A stretch of 64,000 nt of DNA from Promethearchaeota archaeon (GTDB lineage: Archaea > Asgardarchaeota > Lokiarchaeia > Sigyniarchaeales > SOKP01). A program made the translations under genes and the position numbers. Where the stretch lies: assembly GCA_016840165.1 (NCBI GenBank), contig JAEOSU010000037.1, forward strand, positions 7,022 to 71,021. Reading direction: 5' to 3'. Below the pieces are notes generated by a model. It did no database searches. It worked only from the letters and a program-made list of their open reading frames with translations, and was not told where the DNA came from. Each line of letters begins with the position of its first letter. Positions within the stretch are counted from its first letter, which is position 1. This document shows positions 39,389-58,529 of this stretch, piece after piece.

Positions 39389-39571
39389 GAAATCCTTAAT
39401 GCTATCAAATTTCTTTAACTGTGATAGGTTATTATCTTCAATAATTAATTTCTTAAGAAACTCTATCTTGATATAGGTATAAACATAAGAGGGAATTACT
39501 ATACTCGTAAAACAACACCAATTTATGAAATATTTATTTAGCTTAGTTTACAGATATGTCAAATCAATTGA

Positions 39572-39937
39572 TTATCCTGGCGGAGAGGGTATTTTTGTCC
39601 ACAGAAGTATACCAACAATTAACCCATAAACCGCTAACGCTTCTGCTAACGCTACTACTAAAAAGGCTTTAAAGAAAGATTCTTCTCTTTCTGCGAGTGA
39701 AGAAATTGCTGCGGTTCCTACGGTTTTTATTGCTAATGCACTACCCAATACTGAAGCCCCAACAGAAATTGCTGCTGACATAGCTAGGATGGCTGAGGTG
39801 GCTGTATTGTAATAATCTAACGTAGTTGCTTGGGCTGCTACTAATGTCACTACTCCATTTGTAGAAAAAAATACAATGAATACTAGAACAATTTGAAATA
39901 ATCCAAGTAATAAATAAAATTTCTTTTTGCCATTCAT
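39572..39937 (-). CDS. atpK: A-type ATP synthase proteolipid subunit K (c-subunit)
   Basis: 121 aa. An N-terminal extra hydrophobic segment plus one helical hairpin with a single carboxylate (VVALAEALAVYGLIV). Confidence 0.85.
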   Translation of the reverse strand: MNGKKKFYLLLGLFQIVLVFIVFFSTNGVVTLVAAQATTLDYYNTATSAILAMSAAISVGASVLGSALAIKTVGTAAISSLAEREESFFKAFLVVALAEALAVYGLIVGILLWTKIPSPPG

Positions 39938-40138
39938 TTTTTAACCATTGCAATAATTTATTAATGTTTAAAAGGAATAAGCGTTCACTAGCGTATAAAT
40001 TCTTCGTTTATAAAATTAAAATTTATTAAATATTAAATCAGAAATAGCAAAAAGGAGTTTTTCAAGTTAGAAGTATTAATGTATTATTATTCCGATATGA
40101 AATGATTTTCTTCAATTATTAGTCAAATATTTAACAAA

Positions 40139-40783
40139 TCAAGAATAGATTATTACTCTGATTTGATCTGCAATATCGTGTATTCTATCAGCTAGATTTT
40201 CAAGTAAAACAATACTATCTCTAATTCTAAGTGTCATTCTTATATCCAAATCTGTATTAGAATAAAGATATTCAAGGAATTGCCTATAAATTCTATCAAT
40301 TTTATTTTCTATTTCATGAATTTCAGTAGTGTTATTAAAGACTTTTTCTTGATTATCTCTTAGATTTTTTATAGTTGTTTTTAACACATTTGCCATATTC
40401 ATTATCATGTTAATTAACTTTTCATACCTCTCAAAAATTTCTTTAGAACTATTAACTTTCAATTTAATATTAGGAAGCATATCAACAAATTCGAGAGGAT
40501 AGTTAATTAGATTGTCCATTCGAAGGATTAGAGCTACAATATTTCCCAATTGTGAGTCAATTTCTGCATAGTCTTTTATTATTTTGATTTTAATCTCATC
40601 TGCTTCTTCTTCAACTAATTGCATTTTACTTTTTTTCTTAGTTAAGCTTTTTTTGTTCGATTCATAATTTTCAGACCATCCAGTATAATATACGCCCATG
40701 TCACTGATTACGGAATAGATTAATCTTGAGTGATCTATAAGCAATGTGATTATTTCTTCTTTTATCTTTCTGTTTGATAACAT
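40139..40783 (-). CDS. DUF47/PhoU-like helical protein
   Basis: 214 aa, all-helical. EEEADEIKIKII and LADRIHDIADQI resemble PhoU/DUF47 repeats. Confidence 0.4.
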   Translation of the reverse strand: MLSNRKIKEEIITLLIDHSRLIYSVISDMGVYYTGWSENYESNKKSLTKKKSKMQLVEEEADEIKIKIIKDYAEIDSQLGNIVALILRMDNLINYPLEFVDMLPNIKLKVNSSKEIFERYEKLINMIMNMANVLKTTIKNLRDNQEKVFNNTTEIHEIENKIDRIYRQFLEYLYSNTDLDIRMTLRIRDSIVLLENLADRIHDIADQIRVIIYS

Positions 40784-40980
40784 TTTAAGTTAAACCAAAT
40801 TTGAAATACAATATTAATAATATATGATTAAAATAATAAAAATCATAAGATTCCAAATTACATAAAAGAAAAATAATAAAGAAAAAATATTTATTATCTT
40901 ACGATTAAGACATCAGAAGGAGTTTTGTTAATCACTTCATCTGAGTTTATTCCGTAATTTTTTAAAATCAAATCAGAAGA

Positions 40981-41499
40981 TTAGTGATTAAAGATATTAT
41001 CAAGACGTAATACTAATTTTTTTACAATAATAAAAGTATTCAGTAAAACATGAGTATTTACCTTATCGGGTTGATCTTTCTTAGTATGTGAGCATTTTGA
41101 AGCAGAAGGTGTTGAAAAATCAATTGTTTCTAAAATAAGCAAATGAAAAGGTAAAGAATCAGTAGGAGCTCCTGATAATAAAGTGTGACCCTTGATCTCT
41201 ATTTTTTCTTCTTGAAAAATTTCATCTAATATTGATATAAGTAGGGAAGAACTCTTTTTTTTTGGAATAATACCATATGATTTAATATATTCAACTCTAT
41301 TTTCACCATTTCTACATGAAACCATATCAAAATTGATCTGATATATTTGATTATTAAGTAATTCTTGTTTAAAAAGATCAAGAAATACTCTAGAGCCCAT
41401 TGTACCTATTTCTTCTGCTGAAAACTGGTAAAACCAGATGTTATAATTATTAAGTGGATTTGCTTTAAAATATGAAGATAATCCAAAAACTAAAGACAT
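40981..41499 (-). pseudogene. Truncated M28-family metallopeptidase (C-terminal part only)
   Basis: 172 aa. Retains FSAEEIGTMGS (EE ligands), NFDMVS, SDSLPFH and HTKKD. Lacks the N-terminal His/Asp zinc ligands. Only 95 bp separate it from the next gene. Confidence 0.45.
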
Positions 41500-41594
41500 G
41501 ATTGAGTATTCAAAATTATATGTTTATCATGATAAATTTAATTTCAAATATTATTTTATTAAATTTTATATATTATTAATAATGGCGAATACAT

Positions 41595-42836
41595 ATGAAA
41601 GCTGTAAAAATAGCAGATAAAGTTTTTTGGATTGGAGCAAATGTGCATTCAGAAGATTTATTTGAAGGAATTTGGCCTATACCAAATGGGATAGCTCTTA
41701 ATTCTTACGTAATAAAAGCAAATAAAGTCGCTGTGATAGAACTTGTTAGAGAATGGGGTGGCGCCTCAATGAGTTTTATTGAGAGTCTTAGATCCCTTAA
41801 TCTTACTTTAAAAGATGTTGACTTCATCATACTTAATCATCTTGAGCCAGATCATACAGGATTTGCACATATCCTGAAGTCTCTTTCACCAAAGGCTAAA
41901 TTTGTAACTACGGAAAAGGGTGCAGCATTATTAGATGGTTTTTATGGCATAGATGAGAATATTATGGTTGTGAAGAGCGGAGATAAAGTAGATCTTGGTG
42001 AAAACAAATCTTTAGAGTTTATAGAAATACCACATGTACATTGGCCTGAGACAATGGCAAGTTATGAAGAGGATTCGAAGATATTATTTAGTGGGGATGC
42101 ATTTGGAGCATTTGGGGTCCATCAAGGAAGTATTTTTGACGATCAGACCCCGGAAGTAAATAAACCTTATTGGGAACAAGAAATGTTAAGATATTATGCA
42201 AATATTATTGCTATGTTTTCTCCGAATGTAATTAAAGCAATCGACGCTCTTGCTCAATTTAAAATAAATGCGATCGCTCCTTCTCATGGTTTAATTTGGC
42301 GAGGGAAACCAGAAGTGGTAATAAAAAAGTACTCTCGTTACGCTAATTATAATAAAGATTTTGCTGAACCTGAAATATGTGTTGTATGGGGAAGCATGTA
42401 TGGAAATACGGAAGCGATGTTAAATGCGATCTTAAAAGGTATAGCCTCTGAAGGGATATATATCCATATTCATAGAGTTCCTAATGAAGAACCATCCTTT
42501 ATTCTGGCAGACGCTTATAAATCAGCTGGTTTAATTATAGGAGCTCCTACATATGAATACAGTATGTTTCCCCCAATGAAATATTTATTGGAACTTTTAC
42601 AAAAGAAACATATGTGGCATAAAAAAGTCATATATTTTGGATCATACGGATGGAGTGGAGGAGCTCAAAAGGATTTTAATGCGTTATCTGAACATATGAA
42701 TTGGGATATCATTGAACAACTAGTATTTAAAGGTCATCCAACCGTTCAAGACCTTAACAAAGGAGAGGAGATAGCAAAGAAATTTGCTCAATCAATATTA
42801 GAAATACCTTCTAAAATAAAAGATGAGGATTATTGA
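41595..42836 (+). CDS. fprA: Flavodiiron protein (A-type flavoprotein, FprA-like)
   Basis: 413 aa. MBL-like diiron motif LNHLEPDHTG plus a C-terminal flavodoxin-like domain (VVWGSMYGNTE). Confidence 0.85.
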   Translation: MKAVKIADKVFWIGANVHSEDLFEGIWPIPNGIALNSYVIKANKVAVIELVREWGGASMSFIESLRSLNLTLKDVDFIILNHLEPDHTGFAHILKSLSPKAKFVTTEKGAALLDGFYGIDENIMVVKSGDKVDLGENKSLEFIEIPHVHWPETMASYEEDSKILFSGDAFGAFGVHQGSIFDDQTPEVNKPYWEQEMLRYYANIIAMFSPNVIKAIDALAQFKINAIAPSHGLIWRGKPEVVIKKYSRYANYNKDFAEPEICVVWGSMYGNTEAMLNAILKGIASEGIYIHIHRVPNEEPSFILADAYKSAGLIIGAPTYEYSMFPPMKYLLELLQKKHMWHKKVIYFGSYGWSGGAQKDFNALSEHMNWDIIEQLVFKGHPTVQDLNKGEEIAKKFAQSILEIPSKIKDEDY

Positions 42837-42993
42837 TTTTTTTTTCTTCTTATTAAAAGTTGAGGTATTGAAATGTAATTTATATATCATATGAAGCTAT
42901 AATCACAAAATATTAATTTCTGGAATCCTTTCATAATTTAAAAGTAAAATGCGAGATAGATATAGCATCACTTATAATGATGGGTTGTATTAA

Positions 42994-44475
42994 ATGATAT
43001 ATCAGGGCTTATTTAACATTCTAAGCTTATATCTTGATAATCTAGAATTTTTTTATAATTCTCTTGACCTATATTTTCAAGATAAAATTATACCTTCTCT
43101 GAGTATTGATTTAAAGGGTAAAAAGAACCTTGATCTTGCTTTAGATGAATTAAGAAAGGTAATATCGAAAGCTTTACGAGAAATTGGAGTAAAAGAAATA
43201 GAAGTTGAAAATAAATTATCTGACCCTTTTTTAGAACTTAATCCGGAGGATTACGATAGAATAAATTCTTTAAATGATTTATATCAATATAAAATAGCTC
43301 CTATTATCTATGAAATCTTTTTGGAGGAATTAGTTCATTACATTGCTGAATCCACCGCCAGCGAAATTATTATAAATCTAAAATCGAAAGGTTTTTTAAA
43401 TATTGAGTTTATGGTCGATATTAAGGGCTTAAAAAGCTTATTTGATGAGAATGAGGATAAAAAAGAAAATTTAAAAAAATATATCGAAATTCGAGATACC
43501 TTTATTAAAAATTTAAGTGAGAACAAACGAAGAATAGAGGTTTTAGAAGATTTAAATAACCCGAAGGATAAACTCCAACTATTATATTTGATTTATCGAA
43601 TTATTAATTTTTTTCATTTGCAAAGAAGATTTGATTTTTCTCATATAATTGAGTATATTAAAAATAACGTGGATGATTGGCTAATGACTATCCCATTAGT
43701 TACTTTAAAAAATCCTGATCTTTATTTTTGCGGTTTATATTTAGCTACAAACCTAAAAATTCCATTAGACAAAGAGAAGATTAAAAACTTCCTTATGGAA
43801 TTATATGAAGAAGCTATCGATGAGTTTGAGGCTCCATTAGTGGAAGCAACAGATGGATTGTACTATTTTTTAAAATCAACCAATTTAATGAAGATATGGT
43901 TAGATGACTCCCAGGTAGATAGATTAATTGAAACTGATACAAAATTTTTTGAGCCTAATTATTTAAAAAATTTGGAAACTTCGCAATTAGTCATAATTCT
44001 TAAAATTTATAATTTAGTTAAAAGAAAGGCAACAATGGAAGAGAATATTACTAAAATCATAGCAGAAATAGAAAATAGAATTAGCTCCGATGGTATTGCA
44101 CAATATAGAGAGGGTTTTATATCCTCAGAAGCTACATATTATGTGTTGTTTTGCCGATATATGAATCAGTCGTTAGATAATTTACAGGATTATGAGTTAT
44201 TAAATACTATCGTATCTCGAATTTATAGAAATCTTGAATTATTAGAATTTACAGCCGATATGAATTATGACCTCATATCTGAATTGTTCTATTCATTCGA
44301 AAGTTTAAAATTATTCAACTGCATAGAAACTAAGGAAATGATTATCCTGCTAGCAAATTATTTGTTCCCTCCAAAAGTTGTAGAAAAAATTGAGAGTTCA
44401 AGCGAGATTGTCAAGGCCGATGCTAAATTTCGACATTTGAAAGTAGACAGGATAACGGGCGAGACCATATATTAA
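42994..44475 (+). CDS. Hypothetical helical protein
   Basis: 493-aa ORF with coding-like composition. No family recognised. Confidence 0.3.
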   Translation: MIYQGLFNILSLYLDNLEFFYNSLDLYFQDKIIPSLSIDLKGKKNLDLALDELRKVISKALREIGVKEIEVENKLSDPFLELNPEDYDRINSLNDLYQYKIAPIIYEIFLEELVHYIAESTASEIIINLKSKGFLNIEFMVDIKGLKSLFDENEDKKENLKKYIEIRDTFIKNLSENKRRIEVLEDLNNPKDKLQLLYLIYRIINFFHLQRRFDFSHIIEYIKNNVDDWLMTIPLVTLKNPDLYFCGLYLATNLKIPLDKEKIKNFLMELYEEAIDEFEAPLVEATDGLYYFLKSTNLMKIWLDDSQVDRLIETDTKFFEPNYLKNLETSQLVIILKIYNLVKRKATMEENITKIIAEIENRISSDGIAQYREGFISSEATYYVLFCRYMNQSLDNLQDYELLNTIVSRIYRNLELLEFTADMNYDLISELFYSFESLKLFNCIETKEMIILLANYLFPPKVVEKIESSSEIVKADAKFRHLKVDRITGETIY

Positions 44476-44658
44476 AACCCCAATATTTAATTTACAAATT
44501 TTAAAGTTTTAAATTATCAAAAATTACTCTAAGAAGATCTATGATTTATATTGTAAACTTAATAACGGTGTTAGATTCTGATCTATTAATTAATTTATCA
44601 CAAGATTGATACCTGAAAAGAGATTCAAACAATTGATTTAAAAGAGAGAGGATAGCAA

Positions 44659-45444
44659 ATGGGTCTGAAAGAAACAACTGCAAAATGGAGAAAATATGCA
44701 GAAATGTCTGATTTGGGCATTATTGTTCGGAGAAAGTTTTTTAATAATTGTTTTGATGGAGCATTAACTTGTGCAGGAATTGTAAGCGGTATATTTGTTC
44801 TTTTTTTAGCTGGTATCAGTGAAAACACTCCAGGGAATATTGTTGTGTTAGGATTTTCAACAGCATTAGCGATTGGTATCAGTGGATTGTGGGGCGCCTT
44901 TCTTTCTGAAGAAGCAGAACGAAAAAAAAAAATAATTGATCTTAAAAAAGAGATGGTTATCATTGATCAAGAAGGTGTTAATGATATACTTGAAAAAGAA
45001 AAATTAGACCTGGCAAGAGAAATACTAAAAGAGAGATCCATAGAAAGAGCTATGCTAATTCCACTTAAGAAGAGTAATACGGGGGAAAATGAAAAAGCGG
45101 TCTTGATTCCTATCCAAAGAAGACCTAAAATGAAAAAAAATGATAAAACTCTTATCGAACAAGCAGAAAATTTCGCAACGATAGTAGCTTCTCTTGTGGA
45201 TGGTGGTGCCCCTGCCTTAGGATCAACTCTGCCTCTCATTCCATTTTTCTTTGGAAGCGAATTAGTTATTTTACACTTTTTAATTTCGTATGCGATTCTT
45301 GTTGGTTTACTTATTTATTTGGGGATATTTTTGGGTAATATTTCAGGTCAAGGGAAATTAAAGTATGCTATACATCTTGTAACAGCAGGGGTGGTAACAC
45401 TCTTAGTTTCCTTATTATTAAGTCTTGCAACCGGTAATTTTTAG
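44659..45444 (+). CDS. VIT1/CCC1-family membrane protein
   Basis: 261 aa. FDGALTCAGIVSG, SGLWGAFLSEEAERKK, and C-terminal GAPALGSTLPLIPFFF. Confidence 0.6.
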   Translation: MGLKETTAKWRKYAEMSDLGIIVRRKFFNNCFDGALTCAGIVSGIFVLFLAGISENTPGNIVVLGFSTALAIGISGLWGAFLSEEAERKKKIIDLKKEMVIIDQEGVNDILEKEKLDLAREILKERSIERAMLIPLKKSNTGENEKAVLIPIQRRPKMKKNDKTLIEQAENFATIVASLVDGGAPALGSTLPLIPFFFGSELVILHFLISYAILVGLLIYLGIFLGNISGQGKLKYAIHLVTAGVVTLLVSLLLSLATGNF

Positions 45445-45534
45445 TAAAAAGTTGATTCGAAGATTATAATTTCGTAATATATCATAGAAAAGTTTAAAAT
45501 ATTCCTTTAAAAGTAAATAATTGGAGTATTTCTA

Positions 45535-46245
45535 TTGAAGATAATCGAAAAAGTAAAAACTTATTCTAGGATAACTAACTTATGGGGAGTTGCTCGAAGA
45601 TATTTTGTAAATAATTTCTATGATGGCATGCTTACAGTATTAGGCATTCTTTTAGGATTTTTTGTGGTTTTACTTAAAGAAAATTTAGTTATAATAAATA
45701 GCAATTTAGTTATTCTTGCGGGATCGGGATCATCGATAAGCATGTTAATATCTGGAATCACTGGATCTTATTTATCAGAGAGAGCTGAACAAAAAAAAAT
45801 CAAAGATACTATAAAGAAATCGATGATAATGAATGAAGAATTGGAAATGAATAACATACGCAACCAATCTATTGAAGAAATAGAGAAATCGATGCTTATT
45901 AAAATTGAAAAGAAACGGAATAGAAAGCGAAATATCTCCCAAAAAGAAAAAAAGCAGATAAAAACCATCCAAGAAAAAGCAGAAAGATTCGCTAGCATTG
46001 TTGTTTCTATAGTTAATGGCTTTTCTCCTTTTTTAGGTGGAATTGTTCCTTTAATCCCATTCATGTTTGTTTCAGAGGCGGGATTAATGATTTTTGTTGT
46101 TTCTTTTTTAATTATTTTAATATGTATTATAATGTTAGGCACGTTCTTAGGTTTAGTTGCCCGGGAATCTATTATTAAAAACATACTTCAAATGGTATTT
46201 GCTTTTTTAATTACTATCATTATTACATTGTTTTTCTTAGGTTAA
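45535..46245 (+). CDS. VIT1/CCC1-family membrane protein (tandem paralog)
   Basis: 236 aa with a TTG start. YDGMLTVLGILLG, SGITGSYLSERAEQKK and FSPFLGGIVPLIPFMF. Confidence 0.6.
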   Translation: MKIIEKVKTYSRITNLWGVARRYFVNNFYDGMLTVLGILLGFFVVLLKENLVIINSNLVILAGSGSSISMLISGITGSYLSERAEQKKIKDTIKKSMIMNEELEMNNIRNQSIEEIEKSMLIKIEKKRNRKRNISQKEKKQIKTIQEKAERFASIVVSIVNGFSPFLGGIVPLIPFMFVSEAGLMIFVVSFLIILICIIMLGTFLGLVARESIIKNILQMVFAFLITIIITLFFLG

Positions 46246-46326
46246 ATATCGCTTATTTGATTTATAATAAAATTAAAATCTTGTTAACCATTTTTAAAAT
46301 AAAATTAAAAGGAGCATAACTAGATC

Positions 46327-47100
46327 GTGAAGAATTTTATTGGTATTGATATTGGATCCTTAGCAACGAAGATTGTTCTTATTAACGAGGGGAAATTATT
46401 GGATCATAAAACCGAACGATCCACCTATGATTTTAAAAGAGTTGGTCACAATCTATTTGATGATATATTAAAACAGCACAATTTAGAGAGAAAGGATGTT
46501 TATGTAATGAGTACGGGTTATGGTCGTAATACAATCGATATTGCTGATGACAGAGTGACAGAAATTACAGCTCATGCGCGTGGAGCACAATATTTCTTTC
46601 CAGATGCTGCTTCAGTTATAGATATAGGCGGTCAGGATAGTAAAGCTATTGTAATGTCTAAGAAGACCGGAAGTGTTATAGATTTTCAGATGAATGATAA
46701 ATGCGCAGCAGGAACAGGCAGGTTTTTAGAAGTGATGGCACATGCTTTAGAAGTTCCGATTGATCAATTTGGAGTTTTAGCATTACAATCTAATAAACCA
46801 GCATCGATAAGTTCAACATGTACAGTGTTTGCAGAGAGCGAAGTTATTAGTTTATTTGCCCGGGGGGCTTCTAAACAAGATATTGCGAGCGGCATTCATA
46901 AATCAATAGCCCGTAGAGTAGCAGGGATGGCAAAAAGAATTGGTGTAGGCCCGAAATTAGTTTTTTGCGGTGGAGTTGCTAAAAATGATGCCGTTAAAAA
47001 TTATTTAGAAGAGGAGCTTGGATTTGAAATCATTCGTCCTGAATATCCTCAACTCACCGGAGCAATAGGAGCCGCGATCATTGCAGAAGAAAAAAAATAA
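46327..47100 (+). CDS. BcrAD/BadFG-type ATPase, 2-hydroxyacyl-CoA dehydratase activator (HgdC-like)
   Basis: 257 aa with a GTG start and an AGGAG SD. GIDIGSLATK, GGQDSK and DKCAAGTGRFLE. Confidence 0.85.
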   Translation: MKNFIGIDIGSLATKIVLINEGKLLDHKTERSTYDFKRVGHNLFDDILKQHNLERKDVYVMSTGYGRNTIDIADDRVTEITAHARGAQYFFPDAASVIDIGGQDSKAIVMSKKTGSVIDFQMNDKCAAGTGRFLEVMAHALEVPIDQFGVLALQSNKPASISSTCTVFAESEVISLFARGASKQDIASGIHKSIARRVAGMAKRIGVGPKLVFCGGVAKNDAVKNYLEEELGFEIIRPEYPQLTGAIGAAIIAEEKK

Positions 47101-47175
47101 AGAGTAAGATACAATTTATAATTCTTAGCTCAATTGACTCTTTTTGATTGATTAACTATATATATTCCAATTAAA

Positions 47176-48318
47176 ATGCAAGCATTAGAGATTTTCGAGG
47201 AATTTTCTCTTTATTTAAAAGAGATGAAAAGCAAGGGGAAAAAAGTAATAGCATTTATCTCGCATGATAATATTCCTGAGGAATTAATAGACGCTGCCGG
47301 ATTTATTCCATTACGGTTGATTTTCGCAGGAAATGATGAATTAATGGATGCGAGTCATGATTATTTACCCCCATCTACCTGTGCTTTTGCGCAAACTTGT
47401 ATCGGTCTTTTTGCTTTAAAACCTCGTCAATTTGATTTTTTAGATTTAATAGATTATTTTATCGTATCTAATCATTGTGTATCAGATATATGTGCTTCTG
47501 AAGTTATATGTAAGTATTTTAATATTCCTCGATTAAATTTTTACATCTCTTACATAAGAAATAGCAATAGTGAGAAATACTTTCGGTTAGAAATCTTGGA
47601 ATTTAGAAAGAAATTAGAGGAAATTAAGAATTCAGTAATATCTGATGAGGCAATAATTGAAAGTATTAAGAAATACAATGAATTCAGAAAATTCCTTGAA
47701 ACTTTAAATAATTTAACTATTCAAGGAAGTCTAAAACTAAAACTCATGCAGAAGGCTTTTTTATTTGGACCTAAAATCATCCCAGAACTAAAAGATTTTA
47801 TCAATTCCAATAATAATTTAAGAGCACAATCGTCCAATTCGAAAGATCTCTTACTTACGGGATGTTCAATCTTCATGAACGATATATTAATCGATTTAAT
47901 CAAAGAAGGAGGAGGAAATATTATATTTTTTGATTCTTGGATTGGATCCAATTATTATTCGCAACAATTTGATAATAGTGCTTTTGAGAATACACAAAAA
48001 CCAATTGATTTATTAGCCTCTCGATATATAAACAATATTTATGGCGATCATTGTGTGCCGAATTTTTTAGAAAATAAAATCGCTCAAATTGAACAGATCT
48101 ACAGGAAGTATAAGGAAAAAACGGGGAAAAGATTAGGAGTGATAAACCATATCATAAAATTTTGTGATCATATGTCTCTCATGTCATCCTTTTTTAAAAA
48201 TAAATTACAAGAAAAGGGTATTCAAGTACTAAATATCGAACGTGATTATTCAAGAGCCAATCGAGGTCAATTGTCGACTCGTATTGAAGCTTATTTGGAG
48301 ATGGGTGATTCAGAATGA
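47176..48318 (+). CDS. 2-hydroxyacyl-CoA dehydratase family subunit (HgdB-like)
   Basis: 380 aa. Size and position after the activator. Its stop overlaps the next gene's start (ATGA). Confidence 0.6.
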   Translation: MQALEIFEEFSLYLKEMKSKGKKVIAFISHDNIPEELIDAAGFIPLRLIFAGNDELMDASHDYLPPSTCAFAQTCIGLFALKPRQFDFLDLIDYFIVSNHCVSDICASEVICKYFNIPRLNFYISYIRNSNSEKYFRLEILEFRKKLEEIKNSVISDEAIIESIKKYNEFRKFLETLNNLTIQGSLKLKLMQKAFLFGPKIIPELKDFINSNNNLRAQSSNSKDLLLTGCSIFMNDILIDLIKEGGGNIIFFDSWIGSNYYSQQFDNSAFENTQKPIDLLASRYINNIYGDHCVPNFLENKIAQIEQIYRKYKEKTGKRLGVINHIIKFCDHMSLMSSFFKNKLQEKGIQVLNIERDYSRANRGQLSTRIEAYLEMGDSE

Positions 48319-49667
48319 GTTTAATTGCAGATGAAATCGTTAGATTCTCCTCAGTATTAAAAATAGCTTATAATTTCTTGACAGGAAGAGCATATTTAAA
48401 ACGAAAAAAGTTTAGGGAAAAACAAAAATTAGTGTCAGTACCACTTCCGTTTTCGGATTTGCCTTTCGCTGCGGGAACGGTACCAGTTTTTCCGATCAGG
48501 ATGCATAATTTTAAGATAAATCAATATCTTACCTATTTAGGGACTGCTTCGAATATTTTTGGATGGAAAGGAGTATCGAATTTTTTAAGTTTTGTGAAGA
48601 ACCTTGGGATTAGTGAAGTGAGTAAAATTGTTGATGATATTATCGAAGATGTCATCCGAGAAATTAATGAAAAATATAACGAAATGTATGACATCGGTAT
48701 AGAGGGGGGGATTTCAAGTGATTTCTGTTATGGCCTAAAAAGTCTTGTAGGTATGAATTTATCAAAAAGTCGCAATGTTGACGCGTATATGAATGTCACT
48801 ATTCGATGCAGTGCCTTCAATAAATACTTAGAATCATTAAGTGCTATAAATAATGAACCGCGCCCAATTTGGATCGATATTCCTCCTAGAAATATAGGTA
48901 ATGCTTTAGAATTATTAACAGATAACGTATCACACGCTTTAAGTGATTTTGAGCAGTTAACTGGGAATACCATATCAGACAATATGTTAAGAAATCATTT
49001 TAATATCAGTAATCAAGTAAAGCGTGCTTACAACACCATTATTTATGATATTAGTGCCTCTGATTTTTATCCATGTAATCCTGCAACTTTTAGCGAAATC
49101 ATGTCTTTATTAAACATTACATTTATTGATTATAACTCTAATGCAACTCGTTATAGAGATAATATGAATTCGTTAGTGAATGAGATGCGAGAAAGGATCA
49201 GGAAACATATCGGAATGGATGTCTCTGATATGCCACGAATCTTTGTCACCCCTATCTTTGGTGGATGGGAACCAAAAACTCATGACTATATTTATGAGTT
49301 AGGAGGAAGGGCACTTTACGCTGATTGGGGGCTATTAAAATTACTTGAAGAGTTACCTATTTCACCTAGTAATAATCCAGTAGAAGAATATGCACGATTT
49401 CTTTTGAATGCCACACAAACAGGAATTGGTTGTGATAATGACAAACTGACGGATTCATATCTTCGTATGGCAAAAGAATTGAATGCTGATGGTGTAGTTT
49501 TTATTCAATTGTTTGGTTGTCATTCGATTTCTAATTGTTATCGAATGTTAAGAGACAAAGTAAGAAAAGAATTAGAGATTCCTATAACCGCGATTACTTT
49601 TAATAAAATTGGAGAGAATATCGAACAAGTGAAAACTCGTATTGGGGCTTTTATGGAGATGTTTTAA
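48315..49667 (+). CDS. 2-hydroxyacyl-CoA dehydratase family subunit (HgdA-like)
   Basis: 450 aa, translationally coupled to the previous gene. Close paralog of the 57222-58529 gene. Confidence 0.6.
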   Translation: MSLIADEIVRFSSVLKIAYNFLTGRAYLKRKKFREKQKLVSVPLPFSDLPFAAGTVPVFPIRMHNFKINQYLTYLGTASNIFGWKGVSNFLSFVKNLGISEVSKIVDDIIEDVIREINEKYNEMYDIGIEGGISSDFCYGLKSLVGMNLSKSRNVDAYMNVTIRCSAFNKYLESLSAINNEPRPIWIDIPPRNIGNALELLTDNVSHALSDFEQLTGNTISDNMLRNHFNISNQVKRAYNTIIYDISASDFYPCNPATFSEIMSLLNITFIDYNSNATRYRDNMNSLVNEMRERIRKHIGMDVSDMPRIFVTPIFGGWEPKTHDYIYELGGRALYADWGLLKLLEELPISPSNNPVEEYARFLLNATQTGIGCDNDKLTDSYLRMAKELNADGVVFIQLFGCHSISNCYRMLRDKVRKELEIPITAITFNKIGENIEQVKTRIGAFMEMF

Positions 49668-50149: not shown

Positions 50150-50166
50150 GGTGAGAGATTAAATCA

Positions 50167-50898: not shown

Positions 50899-50931
50899 AA
50901 ATTCTTTTATATTGATTTTATTTTCCGAATA

Positions 50932-51936
50932 TTATTTCTCTTCCAATTTTCTTTTTAGCTCTTCCTTTTCTTCTTCAAGTTCTTCAATTTTCTTTTCACG
51001 TCTTTTAATTTTCTGTTGTGCAATGGTAATTCCTTGTAGACTTAATAACTTTTTAACAAAAATAATCGATGCTATAACTATACCTATTAGATAAAAAAGC
51101 TCAGCAGTCCAATAGAAGTTAGAAAGATTAGTATAAACTGAAAGGTTCAAAAATGGTAAGATCAATGTAATTATTCCAATAAAGACCAAAGATATTAGCA
51201 ATGATATTCTTTCATATGCCTTAATCTTGCTTCGAAAGAATATGTAAACTCTTAACCAAAAGATAATACATATCAATGTAATAGGAGTAAATATAATAGA
51301 ACCGATTCCTATTATCAATAGAAAGTTCAAAGCAAACTTTTTTCTCCATAAATCTAATATTTCCTTAGTTGTCATTTGAACTTGAACTTGAGCACTTGCA
51401 TATTCTTTTCTCAATTCAAAATATTTCTTCTTGATTCGTCTCGCGACTCGCTTAGCGCCTTTTTTCCACCAGCTTAATTTGCCTAATTCTGCTGCTTCTG
51501 TAATTTCATCCCTAATTATTGGTAAGATGTAAAGGTTCAATAATAAAGAGAGTATACCATAGAAGTATAATAGCAAATCAAACCAAAACCAAAAGCCTGT
51601 TTGAGTTATAATTGTTTTACTAATGTAACTTATGACGACTTTATACGTAGCATAACCAATTAAAATTAAAGGAACTACAATTTGAATAATATTAAAGATT
51701 GTTAATTCTTTCTCACCAAATTTATCCTTGAATTTTTTTAGAACTATTAAAAAAACATTAGCAATACTCAGTAAGAGTCCAAAACCGGATAAAAATTTAA
51801 CAGCCCAGAAAAAAACTAGCAAGAATGTGTCTAAATAAAACAAGTCAAAAGTAAGGTTTAGTATCATAAAGATTAATGATACCGATAAAGCAATGAAATA
51901 AATTAATCTATATAACTTTTCATTCATGATTATCAC
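50932..51936 (-). CDS. Polytopic membrane protein with charged coiled-coil tail (hypothetical)
   Basis: 334 aa. About 8 hydrophobic segments. C-terminal KIKRREKKIEELEEEKEELKRKLEEK. Confidence 0.45.
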   Translation of the reverse strand: MIIMNEKLYRLIYFIALSVSLIFMILNLTFDLFYLDTFLLVFFWAVKFLSGFGLLLSIANVFLIVLKKFKDKFGEKELTIFNIIQIVVPLILIGYATYKVVISYISKTIITQTGFWFWFDLLLYFYGILSLLLNLYILPIIRDEITEAAELGKLSWWKKGAKRVARRIKKKYFELRKEYASAQVQVQMTTKEILDLWRKKFALNFLLIIGIGSIIFTPITLICIIFWLRVYIFFRSKIKAYERISLLISLVFIGIITLILPFLNLSVYTNLSNFYWTAELFYLIGIVIASIIFVKKLLSLQGITIAQQKIKRREKKIEELEEEKEELKRKLEEK

Positions 51937-52080
51937 TTCTATCTATATTAAAACTTTGCAACAATTAAATATTTAGAAGATTTTTAAAATATTTTAAGAT
52001 TTCAAAAGAAAAGGGTAGAGAGAAAGAAAAAAACATAAAATAATGATTTATTTTAATTATAATAGTAGTAATGAAAATAA

Positions 52081-52266
52081 TTGACTAAAAAAGAGGTGAT
52101 AAATACGAGAAGAGGAGGAAAGGGAAGAGGGGGTGGTCCGTATGCTGCAGGGCCAGGGGGCAATTGTGTTTGCCCAAATTGTGGTTATCAAAAGCCACAT
52201 CAAACGGGTGTACCTTGTATGAATGAAGTATGCCCAAAATGTGGTACAAGAATGACTAGAAAATGA
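52081..52266 (+). CDS. Small Gly/Arg-rich zinc-ribbon protein (two CxxC pairs)
   Basis: RRGGKGRGGGPYAAGPGGNCVCPNCGYQKPHQTGVPCMNEVCPKCGTRM. The start is ambiguous: TTG 52081, GTG 52096 or ACG 52105. Preferred over the antisense ORF at 52057-52332. Confidence 0.55.
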   Translation: MTKKEVINTRRGGKGRGGGPYAAGPGGNCVCPNCGYQKPHQTGVPCMNEVCPKCGTRMTRK

Positions 52267-52390
52267 AAAATACTTAAGGTAATTTTGGAATAGGAATTTA
52301 TCCTTAGTTTCCAAATTAACTAATAATTTCAACAGATTTCAAATCTATATGATTTATTAAATCTACAAAAAAAATAAAAAATTATTAAAT

Positions 52391-52498
52391 TTAATTAGAA
52401 TGGTGCTTTTCGGCATGTTCTTTCATTTTTTTCTTAGCTTCAGCTTCATCTTTTCCCATGAATGACATACCACATTTAGGACATTTTAGTTCTACCAT
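52391..52498 (-). CDS. 35-aa CxxC...HxxxHH micro-protein (DUF1059-like), absent from the ORF track
   Basis: My own translation is MVELKCPKCGMSFMGKDEAEAKKKMKEHAEKHHSN. ATG at 52498, TAA at 52391-52393. Purine-rich AGAGGAAAG about 8-10 nt upstream. Confidence 0.4.
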   Translation of the reverse strand: MVELKCPKCGMSFMGKDEAEAKKKMKEHAEKHHSN

Positions 52499-52722
52499 AT
52501 ACAACACTTTCCTCTTTTATTTATAATATTTTAATTTATTAAATTATCATAGGTTTAATTTCAATTGAGTTTATTAAATATTTTCTACATAAACTATTTA
52601 TAATTTCGAAATTTCAACTCTATTTAATAAGTGGAATTAGAAAAAAGGTATTAGAATCTTTTTTAAAAAAAAAAAAAGAATTTTAAGAAGCTATAAAAAT
52701 AAGTGTATTACAGTTTATTTGA

Positions 52723-53019
52723 TCACTCACCTAAGAGTTCTTGGACTTCTTTTTTTCCGTCTTCAAGCTCTTCTTGTTGTTGCTTATCCAGTTTCAATAA
52801 TAGATATTGGAACTCTCCGACATGCTCTTTTTCTTCTTTTGCGATATCCAAAAGGACCATCTTCAAATGCTTGTTTTCGGTCATGTTTGCCATTTGCTCG
52901 TAAAGATTAATTGCATCTAATTCGGCGAGGATTCCAAACCGCAAAATTTGCTTATCGATATCTTCTTTTCTTACTTTTTCTAACATAATTGGTACATTTG
53001 CCAACGTCATATTGATCAT
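52723..53019 (-). CDS. Encapsulated-ferritin-like (EncFtn/ferritin-like) protein
   Basis: 98 aa. ILAELDAINLYEQM and LLDIAKEEKEHVGEF match the EncFtn Glu/Glu/His iron-ligand motifs. Confidence 0.6.
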   Translation of the reverse strand: MINMTLANVPIMLEKVRKEDIDKQILRFGILAELDAINLYEQMANMTENKHLKMVLLDIAKEEKEHVGEFQYLLLKLDKQQQEELEDGKKEVQELLGE

Positions 53020-53183
53020 CTCGTTATATTGGAAAGTTATATCAATATCTAATATGATTAGGTCTATAATAAAATCTTGTGTTTTAACTCATTAATCACA
53101 TTTCTATAAAATTTATGATTTTTAGGAAATTTTTCGACTAAATTCTTCATAACTAATAATAATCGAAATTGAGTAAAGATTTT

Positions 53184-54287
53184 TTAATTAATTGGTATCT
53201 GTTGTTCAGCTCCCATATTAATTAATTCTTCAGATGTGATTCTTCTCTTAATATATTCTTCTAATTTTAATTTATTAATTGTTCTGCCTAGGCTTTTGAA
53301 ATCCATTCCACAGAGTATTGAAGATAAGTTTATTATGGAATCAATAATAGGTGTATTGATACCTAAAAATTCGGCTAAGGAAGAAATTGTCACTAATCCT
53401 GTTGGTACATCCTCAGTGAAATATCTTGTTACTAATCTTTTAGGTACGATAATATCCTTATATGCTATGATTTCTTGAATTACATCGTACATGCATTTTC
53501 CACTTACGCCATAAGAATTTTTTGCCCATTTACAGAAGTTAATTTGTTTTAGACCTAAAATATGCATAATTTTATTGATTTCTATTTGAATTCTCTCAAG
53601 TACTTCACATGTTCTTTTAGTCGCGCCTTCAGAATAGAATTTAAATTCTTTTCCAATATCTATTATTCCAGAGTTTAAGACTGAAAGAGTTGGATGAAGT
53701 AGCATTCCTATATTATTTAGGGTCATTTCAAGATAATCATCAACGGGAACTAATTGTGGAAAAATCTCATGTAGAGTGTCATAAACAAAAAATGTATATT
53801 TTTCAGGATAAGCCGAAAATTGAACAGAATCCTTGATTTTAAGAATTTGAACCCCATTTTTTTTTAACTGTCTCGAAGTAAATAATAAAGTTTGTGTTTC
53901 CGCGACAAAAACTGGAAAAGAACCGATTTCTTCTTTTATAGTTTGTGAAAATTCAATCGCTCCAAAGGTTCTTCCAGGATTTAAAAGGATGATTTGATCT
54001 TTTGTTAAGAAATGGGCTATTTTTTGAGCGATATCCTTGTGGGCAGAGGCAGGAGTCACCACTAAGATAACATCTGCTTTCTTTAAAGCATAATCTAATC
54101 TTTGGGTAATTATATTTAATGGAAAGTATCCTTTAATTTCTCCTTTTGACTTTACTCCTCCTTTTTTTTTAATATCTGCGATTCTTGAAAAAGACCTATT
54201 ATATAAATTCACAGGATGTCCCTTTGAGGATAAGTATGCAGCAAAGGCACGTCCTCCGTTTCCAGCACCTATGATACTAAATTTCAT
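53184..54287 (-). CDS. NAD(P)-dependent octopine/nopaline (opine) dehydrogenase family protein
   Basis: 367 aa. Rossmann opening MKFSIIGAGNGGRAFAAYLSSKGHPVNLYNR. Length and layout are typical of the family. Its start overlaps the upstream gene by 4 nt. Confidence 0.55.
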   Translation of the reverse strand: MKFSIIGAGNGGRAFAAYLSSKGHPVNLYNRSFSRIADIKKKGGVKSKGEIKGYFPLNIITQRLDYALKKADVILVVTPASAHKDIAQKIAHFLTKDQIILLNPGRTFGAIEFSQTIKEEIGSFPVFVAETQTLLFTSRQLKKNGVQILKIKDSVQFSAYPEKYTFFVYDTLHEIFPQLVPVDDYLEMTLNNIGMLLHPTLSVLNSGIIDIGKEFKFYSEGATKRTCEVLERIQIEINKIMHILGLKQINFCKWAKNSYGVSGKCMYDVIQEIIAYKDIIVPKRLVTRYFTEDVPTGLVTISSLAEFLGINTPIIDSIINLSSILCGMDFKSLGRTINKLKLEEYIKRRITSEELINMGAEQQIPIN

Positions 54288-55999
54288 TTCTCACTCCCCT
54301 GGCGGATAAATCTTCTCTTTCTGAATGGTGAATTAAAAAGACTTAATTCATTAGTTACATTATCAATGTCTTTTATCCTTTCGATTTCCTCATAAATTTT
54401 ATCACGTGCAGAATCCCATGAATAACAAGCTCCATTAATAATCTTCGTTTTGAGTTCTCCTTTAGCAAACTTATTATTTTTCAAATGGGGGGCATCAAAG
54501 ATTCCATACTTAACAATCCTATTTAATATGTTTGGATTAATATAAGGATCTTCAGCTTCTTCTAAATTATTAGCTAAGTTAGGAATTAAGCTTATTATAT
54601 CTTGTGCTTGTGTAATTAGTTGCTCTTTTCTTGCTATAATACTGCTGTTTATAAAATTTAGGTTGCTAGAGAGGGATTTAGTAATAATTTGACTTACAAT
54701 TTTGCAGCTTTCTATGATGTCATTAGGCTTAGCAACATGATCTGCCTCAGAGTAACTCACTATATGAACGATATCCGGTTTTAATGCTAATTGTACCATA
54801 GTAGCTGCTGCGAGTTGTCCTTTTGCTTTATCTAAATCTAATGGAAAACTAGCTAATCCAGTTCTGACTTGTTTAATCACTGAGAAATCTTTATCAACTA
54901 GAGTATTAAGTAATTCGTTTTTCGCTATCATCTTAGCTAAATCCATATCGAGTGTGAGATTTGGTGGAGTATTAAACATATATTGTGCAATAAAATGCTT
55001 GACACCTAATTTCTTAGCAATGATCCCACATAGGTACATATCTGCTACTGCTATTGCATCTGAAGTATCTCGCAAACTCCATTGGTGTGAATCATTTATC
55101 TCAACAGGAATATTGTTTGTAGCGTGCCATTTAATCGCTCTTAAATGTTGTCTAATCGATTCTTTTAATGACAAAGGACCTCTTCCATCCATTTGATTAA
55201 ACCAGAAGATAGGGATTGCTGCCCATGCATTTTTTATAGTTTCAAGAAATAAGCGTCCCAGTTTAATGAAATCTCGCGTACCCGCATAAATTCGAAGCAA
55301 GGGATAATTACCTCGCTTTCTTGCATTATCTATGTTTTTAAAATCCTCTTTTGATCGTAGTGGAACTCCTCCGGCACCGTCTAGATCTTGTTGTTGATCT
55401 TCGGGATGAAAATAATGTGATTGAGTATTCTGATCAGGTGCGATTGAGATTATATCTAAAATTTTAGCTTCAGCAATTTTTTTTATCCCTTTAATTGTCT
55501 CAGATAAATCTGATAGTCCAAAATGAGCTCTTAAGATGGGATAAGGCTTTTTCCATTTAATTCTTGAAATTAAATCCATTGGGGGTTGAAATTTTTTTTC
55601 AGAAGATTCATCAGTATTTCTTAAAATTGAAATAATCTCATATCTAGTTTCACCACCAACAAAATAATAATCAAATTCCCCAATACTTTTTGCGGCTTTA
55701 ACGACTTCAGGAGTTCCAGCAAAAAGTAATTTATTCGGCTTTTTATCTAAAGTATTATAACTTTGAAAAAATCGCTCTAGTAAAGGTATAACTGTTTTAG
55801 GGGTTAATCTATAACTAAGTCCAACTATCTCTGGGTTAGTATTATTGATTTTATCGATAAGATCTGGGATAGGGGTCGCGGGTCCCATAAAATAAGTTTG
55901 AAACCCAAGTTGCCGTGCGATCTGCATAAAGTTGTAACTACCAGCAACATGGACACATTGTCCAATACATGCTATTAAAATAACTTTTTTCTTTCGCAT
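54284..55999 (-). CDS. B12-binding-domain-like N-terminus fused to a TIM-barrel-like domain (possible glutamate-mutase-type isomerase)
   Basis: 571 aa. VILIACIGQCVHVAGSYNF sits where DxHxxG lies in cobalamin-binding domains (His kept, Asp replaced by Cys). Strong SD GAGGGTGAT 5 nt upstream of the ATG. Confidence 0.35.
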   Translation of the reverse strand: MRKKKVILIACIGQCVHVAGSYNFMQIARQLGFQTYFMGPATPIPDLIDKINNTNPEIVGLSYRLTPKTVIPLLERFFQSYNTLDKKPNKLLFAGTPEVVKAAKSIGEFDYYFVGGETRYEIISILRNTDESSEKKFQPPMDLISRIKWKKPYPILRAHFGLSDLSETIKGIKKIAEAKILDIISIAPDQNTQSHYFHPEDQQQDLDGAGGVPLRSKEDFKNIDNARKRGNYPLLRIYAGTRDFIKLGRLFLETIKNAWAAIPIFWFNQMDGRGPLSLKESIRQHLRAIKWHATNNIPVEINDSHQWSLRDTSDAIAVADMYLCGIIAKKLGVKHFIAQYMFNTPPNLTLDMDLAKMIAKNELLNTLVDKDFSVIKQVRTGLASFPLDLDKAKGQLAAATMVQLALKPDIVHIVSYSEADHVAKPNDIIESCKIVSQIITKSLSSNLNFINSSIIARKEQLITQAQDIISLIPNLANNLEEAEDPYINPNILNRIVKYGIFDAPHLKNNKFAKGELKTKIINGACYSWDSARDKIYEEIERIKDIDNVTNELSLFNSPFRKRRFIRQGSEK

Positions 56000-56544
56000 T
56001 TTAAATCACCCTCATATTTTTTGCATAATTGACTTATTGCTCTTTGATGCTCATGAAGTGAAATCGAAAATATGATTATATGCAGATTATAGCGCTGATA
56101 TTGAGCCTATAGCTACAATTATACTATCAACTTTTTAGATTATAACCTATTTACTTATTTGAATGCGTCTGTTATACTCTTATATTGATAACTTATTGAT
56201 ATAAAGATATTTACTTCAGAACTTTCTTTATGTATTTATATCACCTTAGCAATATAAATTTTAGGGTGATTTAAATAGATTAGGCTTTAAACTTTAATTC
56301 TACTAAACTTTATATAAATTTCTTATTCCTTAAGCACTTTTAATTTGGTTATTTAATATCTTTAAATTTTTTATAAATTTATTTTTACTCCCCATCTTCT
56401 AATTTTTCTAATTCTTTAGATATCTGAATATGTAGCTGCTTCCTTTCAATAAAATCGTTGACTATTGGGCTCCTATAAACCTTAATTTTTATATTGAGGG
56501 AGTTAGATACCTTCCTCTTAATTTTTATTATATATTAGTGAGAA

Positions 56545-57000
56545 TTAAAAAATCAATTTTCTTTTTGCGTGAGTGGTTTCGAAATAGCTTTTATACTTTC
56601 TTATCTCATCATGAATTTCTTCTAATTGCTCATTTTCTAACAATTTATTAAAAAAGTTTTTCACTGATAAATATAATTTAGGAACAAAAGTATCAACCTG
56701 AGACATATGGTAAGCTATCTCCATTATTGAGGAATAATCAATTTTAATATCAATCTGCCTTTTGCGAATGTCTTCTATTATTTTCTCTTTAAGCCTTTTC
56801 CTGCTAATGTTGCTCCAAATCAATTCATAAACAAAATAATTAATTGCTTGCACCGATTCAGTGAGAATTGCTGTTCCTGTGGCAATTTCAATACTCCCAG
56901 TTATGAAGTAGGCGGTTAAAGTGCCTAGAACTAAGGTAATTCCTCTATAAATTAGACTCTTGATTAAACTTTCCTTCCATTCTATATTTGGAGTTTCCAT
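56545..57000 (-). CDS. DUF2061-like membrane protein with C-terminal helical domain
   Basis: 151 aa. SLIKSLIYRGITLVLGTLTAYFITGS...INYFVYELIWS matches the DUF2061 two-helix pattern. Confidence 0.45.
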   Translation of the reverse strand: METPNIEWKESLIKSLIYRGITLVLGTLTAYFITGSIEIATGTAILTESVQAINYFVYELIWSNISRKRLKEKIIEDIRKRQIDIKIDYSSIMEIAYHMSQVDTFVPKLYLSVKNFFNKLLENEQLEEIHDEIRKYKSYFETTHAKRKLIF

Positions 57001-57221
57001 AATTGATAATAATATAACATCATTCTTATTTGAATTTGAGTAGAATATTCTTATTCTTTATAAAGACCGCTTATTTTTAAAAAACTGCTCAAAAATTTTA
57101 TTACCTTACCATGATTAAATTAAAAATATATATATTCAGTTAAGAAGTTAAGAACGAAGGAGATGAAGAAGGAACGAGTATCTATGCTGATGATGTTATT
57201 AGCTTTACTTCCCTTTTAAAA

Positions 57222-58529
57222 ATGGCAAATAACTTCTTAACAGGTAGAGAATATTTACGAAGAAAAAAACTTCGAGAAAAAAAGAAGCTCATTTCAGTTG
57301 CTTTAGGTTTTCCTGATTTAATTTTTGCTGCTGGAGGTATACCTGTTTTTCCAATTAGATTAGAATCATTTACTGTTAACCGATATTTAACTGCCCTAAA
57401 TTCAGCGACAAGTGTTTTAGGATGGAGTTTAACCGCCAAATTTCTAGATTTTGCTCGACAATTTGATATATTAAAATTAGTGGATAAAATACTCGAGGAA
57501 GTAATTTCCTCAATCAATCAGAAATACAATCAAATGTACGACTTAGGGGTTCAAAATGGAGTTCCCTCTGATTTATGTTATGGAATCTATGCGCTTTATG
57601 GCATGCATAAGGAACGGAAGCAAATAGATGCCAATTTAAATTTTGCGATGAGGTGTGGAGAATGGAATAAAATCTCCGAATCGCTGAGATCGATTGTACC
57701 AAATCAAATTTGGGTAGATATACCTGCTTTAAATGCAGAAGATGAGAAAGAACGGTTATCGTTAATGGTGTCGAATGTCAATAAGGCTATTGATGAATTA
57801 GAATTGTTAACTGGGAACGTAATATCTGATAATAGCCTTAACAAGCAATTTCGGATAGGTAACCAGGTGAAACGTTTTTATAACACAATCTTATATGAAA
57901 TTAGTGCGTCAAATTTTTATCCATGTAATCCTGCAACTTTTGCAGAAATCCTAGCTCTATTAACAATAACCTTTCAAGATTATAATTCCAATGCTCAGCG
58001 GTTTTTAGAGAATATGAGCCATCTTGTAAAAGAGATGCGAGAACGTATAAAAAAAGGGATTGGAATGGATGTAACAAATATGCCAAAATTACTTTTCTCT
58101 CCAATGTATAGCGGTTGGGAACCAGAAATCCATGAAATTATCTATAAATTGGGGGGACGTGTATTATATGCCGATTGGGAGATCTTAGGCTTACTTGAAG
58201 AAATTCCTGTATCAAAAAATTCAGATCCTATAGAAAGTTATTCCCGATATTTATTAGATGCATCTACTAAAGGTATAGGATGCGATAACGAAAACTTAAC
58301 AAGTTCGTATCTCAAGGCTGCCAAAAACATGGAGGTTGATGGTCTTATTTTCAATCAGGTATATGGATGTCCTTCAATGTCAAACATATATGAGAATCTT
58401 AAGAGAAAAGTTGAATCTGAATTAAAATTGCCTTCAATAGTAATAAAGTTCAAAAAGATAGGAGAAAATATTGAAGAAATTGAAAATCGCTTGAAACCAT
58501 TTATGGAGGAACTTCGAAGTATCGATTAA
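57222..58529 (+). CDS. Orphan 2-hydroxyacyl-CoA dehydratase family subunit (paralog of 48315-49667). The conserved N-terminus extends upstream to 57174.
   Basis: 435 aa from the first ATG. High similarity to the 48315 gene along its length. The upstream in-frame TSIYADDVISFTSLLK aligns with MSLIADEIVRFSSVLK of the paralog. Confidence 0.65.
   Translation: MANNFLTGREYLRRKKLREKKKLISVALGFPDLIFAAGGIPVFPIRLESFTVNRYLTALNSATSVLGWSLTAKFLDFARQFDILKLVDKILEEVISSINQKYNQMYDLGVQNGVPSDLCYGIYALYGMHKERKQIDANLNFAMRCGEWNKISESLRSIVPNQIWVDIPALNAEDEKERLSLMVSNVNKAIDELELLTGNVISDNSLNKQFRIGNQVKRFYNTILYEISASNFYPCNPATFAEILALLTITFQDYNSNAQRFLENMSHLVKEMRERIKKGIGMDVTNMPKLLFSPMYSGWEPEIHEIIYKLGGRVLYADWEILGLLEEIPVSKNSDPIESYSRYLLDASTKGIGCDNENLTSSYLKAAKNMEVDGLIFNQVYGCPSMSNIYENLKRKVESELKLPSIVIKFKKIGENIEEIENRLKPFMEELRSID

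Follow-up and report, generated by a model that had tools for sequence, protein, structure and literature searches.

The window, i.e. the whole stretch of 64,000 nucleotides (nt) analysed here, is positions 7022–71021 of contig C14 in a metagenome-assembled genome (3.6 Mb, 105 contigs, about 30% G+C) of the Promethearchaeota, the Asgard phylum. It carries three genes in which ACG stands where an initiation codon is expected. These are atpC, which encodes subunit C of the A-type ATP synthase (ACG at 39508–39506), a gene for a small zinc-ribbon protein (52105–52107), and a paralogue of an HgdB/BcrC-like dehydratase subunit (57174–57176). A preliminary description of the window, made from its letters alone, had pointed to these three ACGs behind Shine–Dalgarno (SD)-like motifs. 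Their coordinates are correct, and each ACG falls in an alignment column in which orthologues or paralogues have ATG or TTG. The comparisons presented here concern the probable use of ACG as a start codon in the archaeal family to which the genome belongs.

The atpC locus displays the following features.

39506–39508, reverse strand: putative ACG initiation codon of atpC (A-type ATP synthase subunit C), placed by the orthologue start column and by independent assemblies
39516–39519, reverse strand: SD core GGTG, 7 nt before the ACG; it matches the 3′ end of the 16S ribosomal RNA (rRNA), GGAUCACCUCCU, and 7 nt is the modal spacer of the genome
38441–39508, reverse strand: atpC open reading frame (ORF) read from the ACG, 355 codons plus stop; PF01992, orthologues align from residue 1
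39572–39937, reverse strand: atpK (proteolipid c subunit), directly upstream of atpC; PF00137

The atpC frame has no ATG, GTG or TTG between a TAA at 39550–39548 and the ATG at 39388. When read from the ACG, the amino acid (aa) sequence matches PF01992 at residues 17–330 (profile positions 7–318 of 339, E = 2.2e-28), with (M/T)SIVIPSYVYTYIK as the predicted N-terminal peptide. A start at ATG 39388 would cost the protein 40 residues of the family N-terminus. The public collections (NCBI, Logan, IMG and ENA) hold AtpC solely as this shorter form of 315 aa (38441–39388, starting at ATG 39388). A PDB sequence search with AtpC gave no match at 1e-3. The gene order in the operon is atpK, atpC, a G/H-like gene and atpF.

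Among 17 species of the same genus, 13 show GGTG, a spacer of 5–8 nt and the codons ACG AGT; the same column is ATG in three species and TTG in one. When the comparison is extended to 100 species of the GTDB family, representing 13 genera, the start column is ACG in 80, ATG in 13 and TTG in 7. The counts by genus include the following.

g1: ACG 30, ATG 5, TTG 1
g19: ACG 28, ATG 2, TTG 5
g13: ACG 6, ATG 1, TTG 0
g10: ACG 3, ATG 2, TTG 0
g11: ACG 4, ATG 0, TTG 0
g14: ACG 3, ATG 0, TTG 0
g16: ACG 3, ATG 0, TTG 0

The column is ATG in three genomes of another family within the same order. ACA, ACT and ACC occur in none of the 100 family species, nor does any codon other than ACG, ATG and TTG. A sense threonine codon would be expected to drift to ACA, ACT or ACC, and thus the column behaves as an initiation codon. 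ACG is the rarest threonine codon of the genome (10.8% of threonine codons). A conserved proline codon a few codons 3′ of the ACG is CCC in 20, CCT in 19, CCG in 8 and CCA in 25 of the 72 parseable sequences with the ACG state. The ATG and TTG states are scattered over at least eight genera, so the start codon of atpC appears to have switched repeatedly. The distance from the GTG of the SD motif to the start is 6–8 nt in 79 of 80 orthologues. On the 5′ side of the ACG the orthologues are unalignable and contain stops and indels; on its 3′ side the protein is conserved from residue 1. In about 100 species this single-copy, essential gene is intact and evolves under purifying selection.

A T-to-C sequencing or assembly artefact had been raised in the preliminary description, as had mere coincidence. 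Logan contigs from runs X1 and X3 (about 12x, one study) and from run X5 (a different study) match the bases at 39506–39508. Since the ACG is conserved in about 80 separately assembled species, an assembly error is untenable. Coincidence is excluded as well: in four genes (the three genes of the window and hisB, which lies elsewhere in the genome and is described below) the codons that replace ACG in the start column are solely ATG and TTG.

For the dehydratase paralogue, the features are as follows.

57159–57166, forward strand: SD-like GGAGATGA; GAGATGA is kept in all 7 of the 7 ACG-bearing orthologues
57174–58529, forward strand: HgdB/BcrC-like dehydratase subunit paralogue read from the ACG, 451 codons plus stop; PF06050, placed by the orthologue column
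48315–49667, forward strand: paralogous dehydratase subunit, whose ATG aligns with ACG 57174

The gene begins ACG AGT ATC TAT, with ATG 57222 as its next canonical start. The orthologue alignments begin at residue 1 or 2 of the ACG-started protein, whose predicted N-terminal peptide is (M/T)SIYADDVISFTSLLK. In 7 of 11 orthologues the arrangement is GAGATGA, 8–11 nt and ACG AGY; the other four orthologues and two paralogues (one of them the window gene at 48315) have ATG at this position. Conservation extends over the 16 residues that separate the ACG from Met17, with variable third codon positions, which argues that the frame is translated through this extension. The same four public collections hold the protein solely as a call of 435 aa (57222–58526). 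An out-of-frame ATG at 57163, inside GGAGATGA, opens an 18-codon ORF (57163–57219, forward strand) with a TAA 2 nt before ATG 57222. This small ORF varies in length among the orthologues, e.g. with 13 codons in both G007 and G011; it is probably incidental, although it could lead to reinitiation at Met17.

The zinc-ribbon gene shows a similar leader.

52093–52099, forward strand: SD GAGGTGA; the same motif precedes ATG (G024) or TTG (G005) in orthologues
52105–52266, forward strand: small zinc-ribbon protein read from the ACG, 53 codons plus stop; placed by orthologue alignment

Here GAGGTGA is followed by taaat and then by ACG AGA AGA GGA GGA. The orthologue in G024 reads GAGGTGA-tttt-ATG AGT AGA AGA GGT GGA and that in G005 reads GGGGTGA-tttt-TTG; the ACG of the window aligns with both starts. 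The frame also contains a TTG at 52081, without an SD motif, and a GTG at 52096 that lies within the SD. As just three orthologues were found and a start at TTG 52081 is possible, this is the weakest of the three window sites.

A fourth case lies outside the window, in a copy of hisB (C102:138–743, reverse strand) that reads GAGGTGA-attaaa-ACG GAA AGA AAA. One base separates the TAA of the upstream gene from the ACG. The column is ATG in ten homologous sequences (nine relatives and a further copy in this genome, on contig C50) and TTG in G016. The first canonical start of the C102 copy is at residue 99, inside the IGPD domain, which begins at residue 32. The two hisB (IGPD) copies, C102 with ACG and C50:8048–8353 with ATG, are 76% identical; the duplication may reflect strain mixing, given that contamination of the bin is estimated at 6.3%.

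Two more, weak candidates have an SD-positioned ACG. One, at C72:30653–30973 (forward strand), has GAGGTG-ctttc-ACG and belongs to no clear family. The other, at C88:8387–9037 (reverse strand), is similar to the gamma subunit of 2-oxoacid:ferredoxin oxidoreductase (PF01558) and has AGGTGA-gaact-ACG, with an in-frame GTG within the SD. A small GTPase on contig C78 had been taken for an ACG start; its start is now placed at an ATT that precedes the ACG by three codons. When about 350 kb of loci from relatives were scanned for further ACG starts, only the atpC sites by which those loci had been collected came up.

The 16S rRNA 3′ end given above predicts the SD consensus AGGAGGUGAUCC. The words GGTG, GTGA and GAGG peak before genes that start at their first ATG, and the last G of GGTG is 5–9 nt from the start, with a mode of 7. 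A 5-mer SD is present in about 13% of genes. The spacing at the ACG sites equals that of ATG genes, as the preliminary description had held; its examples of SD-led starts at 55999 (ATG) and 49793 (TTG), and the TTG and GTG starts that it listed for other genes of the window, are likewise as described.

A genome-wide scan was made over 2,683 stop-to-stop ORFs of at least 150 codons with an in-frame stop upstream. In-frame codons at least 10 codons before the first canonical start were scanned, and a codon was counted as SD-positioned when an SD core word lay 5–9 nt upstream of it.

Other codons, not near-cognate (reference): SD-positioned 114 of 7369
ATT: SD-positioned 32 of 585, odds ratio 3.7, p = 1e-8
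CTG: SD-positioned 4 of 39, odds ratio 7.3, p = 0.003
ACG: SD-positioned 3 of 40, odds ratio 5.2, p = 0.025
ATA: SD-positioned 14 of 484, odds ratio 1.9, p = 0.03

Enrichment of SD-positioned AAG, AGG or ATC was not seen in the same ORF scan. Strong SD sites near the 5′ ends of ORFs are followed by ATG 228 times, ATT 78 times, TTG 66 times and GTG 29 times, against a background of about 40–70 for AT-rich codons that are not starts. A plain count of SD, codon and long ORF was dropped, as triplets internal to coding sequence (with GCN and GGN at the top) swamped the signal. A change-point scan of dicodon coding potential was weak (0.18 nats per codon) and served for the ranking of candidates alone.

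ACG is thus a rare start in this genome, with about 4–7 genes. ATT appears to be the main non-canonical start, with at least 30 SD-led genes, and CTG and ATA seem to occur as starts as well. The preliminary description had proposed relaxed start-codon selection that includes ACG. The use of ACG agrees with this and the near-cognate starts described here support it; the proposal has to be widened, however, because ACG is a rare member of the set and ATT, which was not mentioned, is the main one.

Many ATT-led ORFs contain whole conserved domains before any ATG, GTG or TTG. In MptA/FolE2, PF02649 begins at residue 6 of the protein; in seven species of the genus its start is ATT or ATC, and two further genera within the order have ATG. 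Examples of candidate ATT-led genes in the scanned genome (G000) are C58:104299–105258 (MptA), the small GTPase on C78, C63:144360–145355 and a Gfo/Idh/MocA-like gene on C58. When 1.6 Mb of the genome G026, from an outgroup family, was scanned in the same way, the SD-positioned counts were 5 of 248 for ATT (odds ratio 1.6, not significant) and 0 of 16 for ACG. In a portion of the present genome of the same size they were 13 of 249 for ATT (odds ratio 3.5, p = 4e-4) and 2 of 20 for ACG.

The gene for the initiation factor aIF1 (SUI1), at C49:34396–34728 on the reverse strand, also lacks a canonical start at its 5′ end. Its first canonical codon is codon 54, an internal TTG. The frame reads ATT AAA GAC GAC GAT ATT TGT CCC, beginning three codons past a TGA, and encodes the usual Cys-knuckle N-terminus. 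Most of the family lacks a canonical start in this gene. In about 30 of its species (loci L080–L091 and L255–L282) a conserved AAGGTTGTGA element is followed by 8–9 nt and the start codon, and in most of the genes an in-frame stop is found 1–4 codons upstream of this start. The apparent start codons are as follows.

ATT: genera g1, g14, g15 and g19, and one g13 species
ATC: three g13 species
ATA: one g16 species; in the other four g16 species the start is ambiguous between ATA and GTG

In seven genomes of the sister families f2 and f4 the aIF1 start is ATG or TTG. The near-cognate start of the aIF1 gene suggests that the stringency of initiation is set low or is under feedback control.

The initiator transfer RNA (tRNA) was located by a BLAST search of this genome with the initiator of the outgroup G026, and lies at C49, about 11031–11168 (forward strand). 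Its anticodon loop is interrupted by an intron of 26 nt and its T-loop by a second one of about 33 nt, which is why ARAGORN missed it, with and without the intron mode. The anticodon loop, which the preliminary description had proposed for inspection, is ordinary (CUCAUAA, anticodon CAU), with G29–31:C39–41 and A1:U72. No departure from the CAU anticodon or from the canonical loop features was found in this tRNA, i.e. the ACG starts are not accompanied by an altered initiator. The tRNA-Thr(CGU) is an ordinary elongator with G1:C72. About 20 tRNAs of the genome were detected, and most of the tRNAs bear introns.

These comparisons argue that ACG is, with good probability, a genuine and evolutionarily maintained translation initiation codon in this Asgard family. 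On the distribution of the aligned start columns, the trait is one of the whole family of at least 13 genera and extends beyond this one genome. A possible mechanism is as follows. Pairing between the SD and the anti-SD would place the 30S subunit, so that GGTG(A) or GAGGTGA, 5–8 nt upstream, sets the peptidyl (P) site over the ACG. The ordinary initiator Met-tRNA (CAU) would then pair with A1 and G3 of the ACG and tolerate a central C–A mismatch. The complex would evade proofreading by aIF1 often enough to give protein output. The family would in this way tolerate one mismatch at the second position (ACG), at the third (AUU, AUC and AUA) or at the first (CUG, in addition to the usual GUG and UUG). 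The widened set of starts would be ATG, TTG and GTG, then ATT, and then ATA, ATC, CTG and ACG. Subunit C is needed once per ATP synthase complex, and the ACG start may be deliberately weak; in atpC it would set a low output of this single-copy subunit right after the gene of the multi-copy c-ring, atpK.

A broader proposal, put forward tentatively and more open to doubt, is that initiation stringency is lowered throughout the family and possibly controlled by feedback. The level of aIF1, made from an AUU, AUC or AUA start, would set the use of near-cognate codons, and ACG and AUU starts would act as dosage settings, e.g. one AtpC per c-ring. The start of the aIF1 gene resembles the infC AUU start and the feedback on eIF1, and by this analogy a stringency feedback loop is plausible.

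Several points weigh against these interpretations. The enrichment of ACG that had been looked for genome-wide is weak in the single genome (3 of 40, against 114 of 7369 in the background) and with p = 0.025 is marginal when taken alone. The contrast with G026 is consistent with a lineage-specific trait, although the comparison has modest power. Both the dehydratase gene (ATG 57222) and the zinc-ribbon gene (TTG 52081) have a canonical alternative in frame. In E. coli, codons of the ACG class give 0.1–1% of the AUG level, so that a more permissive machinery would be required for ACG to yield substantial expression. The aIF1 protein of the family, when compared with that of outgroups, shows no obvious loss-of-function or stringency-lowering substitution, and its basic loop KRKWGR is kept. 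That ribosomes initiate at ACG and insert methionine there, that such a start is weak and that aIF1 takes part are, moreover, inferred from sequence comparisons.

It is conceivable that the ACGs are not used, that translation begins at the downstream ATG (39388 or 57222), at the upstream TTG 52081 or at a neighbouring ATA or ATT, and that some other constraint conserves the ACG. Canonical in-frame codons are indeed present in two of the three window genes, Met17 of the dehydratase is conserved, the out-of-frame ORF at ATG 57163 could permit reinitiation at ATG 57222, and the downstream ATGs are the ones chosen by public gene callers. This is nevertheless unlikely. The first canonical start would delete 40 (atpC) and 98 (hisB) conserved residues of Pfam domains, and the stretch from the ACG to the downstream ATG shows synonymous variation, with the protein sequence conserved. 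Codons 3–5 are not consistently near-cognate across species (GAG stands at codon 3 in G009, G005 and G017), and the switch to ATG or TTG is confined to the ACG column.

A further possibility is site-specific C-to-U editing of the messenger RNA (mRNA), which would turn the ACG into AUG, as it does in plant organelles. Each of the four sites is exactly ACG, a single transition from ATG, and the genomic ACG alternates with ATG among related species, just as it does at the starts of plant organelle genes. A search for RNA sequencing runs that contain the locus found none. The same genomes, however, start genes at ATT, ATC, ATA and CTG, which unlike the edited starts of plant organelles are not convertible to AUG by a C-to-U change, so that a second mechanism would be needed anyway. 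Around the four ACGs there is no common sequence context except the SD. Literature searches found nothing on C-to-U editing of mRNA in archaea, and none is known to us. Editing is accordingly regarded as very improbable. Hardly any credence is given to the view that the ACGs are start-loss mutations in decaying or dispensable genes, or artefacts of sequencing or binning. The hisB ACG, it is true, is found in this genome alone, next to a second hisB copy with ATG and in a bin of 6.3% estimated contamination; but the single-copy, essential atpC is under purifying selection with ACG in 80 species, the four ACG-started ORFs are all uninterrupted, and the base agrees across independent assemblies. 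Initiation at ACG by the SD-guided route thus stays the preferred explanation of the four sites.

Full-text literature searches yielded no report of archaeal ACG starts or of a near-cognate start for aIF1. To our knowledge ACG is absent as a start from every prokaryotic genetic-code table, and we know of no documented natural, conserved ACG start in bacteria or archaea. Initiation at codons other than AUG is itself well known; what is new here would be the codon ACG, the depth of its conservation (a family of 13 or more genera) and its association with a fidelity-factor gene that itself has a near-cognate start. Reviews of archaeal initiation give AUG, GUG and UUG (PMC4705826), and PMC7531240 mentions neither ACG nor AUU. 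Ribosome profiling of Haloferax volcanii placed about 30% of putative alternative sites at near-cognate codons, which the authors did not pursue (PMC7261190). This is an archaeal precedent, but the sites concerned are minor alternatives; none is a conserved primary start of a core gene.

In eukaryotes and their viruses, ACG, CUG and AUU starts are established, e.g. the ACG start of yeast ALA1 (PMC2909995). The codon is the same as here, it is presumably read by a CAU anticodon with a central mismatch, the starts would be alike in being weak and used for dosage, and the fidelity factors eIF1 and aIF1 are homologous. Unlike the eukaryotic starts, which depend on scanning and a Kozak context, the Asgard ACG would be picked by SD pairing at a fixed spacing; it also heads housekeeping genes as their only start and is conserved throughout an archaeal family.

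In E. coli, initiation reaches 1–2% of the AUG level at AUA, AUC, AUU and CUG and 0.1–1% at the other 57 codons, including ACG; two natural AUU starts are confirmed (bioRxiv 10.1101/063800). The AUU starts of infC and pcnB resemble the present cases in that a near-cognate codon stands behind an SD, and in that a fidelity-factor gene itself has such a start (infC in E. coli, aIF1 with ATT, ATC or ATA here). Against the two AUU cases of E. coli, this genome has dozens of SD-positioned ATT candidates. IF3 regulates its own synthesis via the AUU of infC; for aIF1, such a feedback is a possibility suggested by the start of the gene. IF3 and aIF1 are unrelated proteins. In eukaryotes, the feedback that acts on eIF1 through the poor context of its start is reviewed in PMC4705826 and is cited in PMC6237735.

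The aIF1 start may thus be a third instance of a fidelity factor that controls its own suboptimal start, after bacterial infC and eukaryotic eIF1. If this is true, it would be the archaeal counterpart of IF3/infC-AUU and eIF1 autoregulation, in the archaeal lineage closest to eukaryotes, and a near-cognate aIF1 start in Asgard archaea bears on the evolution of the control of start-site stringency in eukaryotes. The atpC case means that an essential ATP-synthase gene is headed by ACG in about 80% of 100 species.

There is also a consequence for annotation. Standard gene callers accept ATG, GTG and TTG alone, and AtpC (315 aa) and the dehydratase (435 aa) are therefore shortened in public databases. 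By inference the same holds for aIF1, MptA, HisB and dozens of ATT-initiated genes. Such errors are carried over into comparative and structural work on Asgard proteomes.

The relatives retrieved with AtpC bear the deposited name “Promethearchaeota archaeon” or, in some cases, Hermod- or Hodarchaeota. Sequence near-identical to the window occurs in marine-sediment metagenomes. In the complete outgroup genome, at G026:C1:751326–751433 (loci L129–L130), ARAGORN reports an intron-containing tRNA with the anticodon CUA, labelled Pyl. This may be a false call, a suppressor tRNA or a Pyl tRNA.

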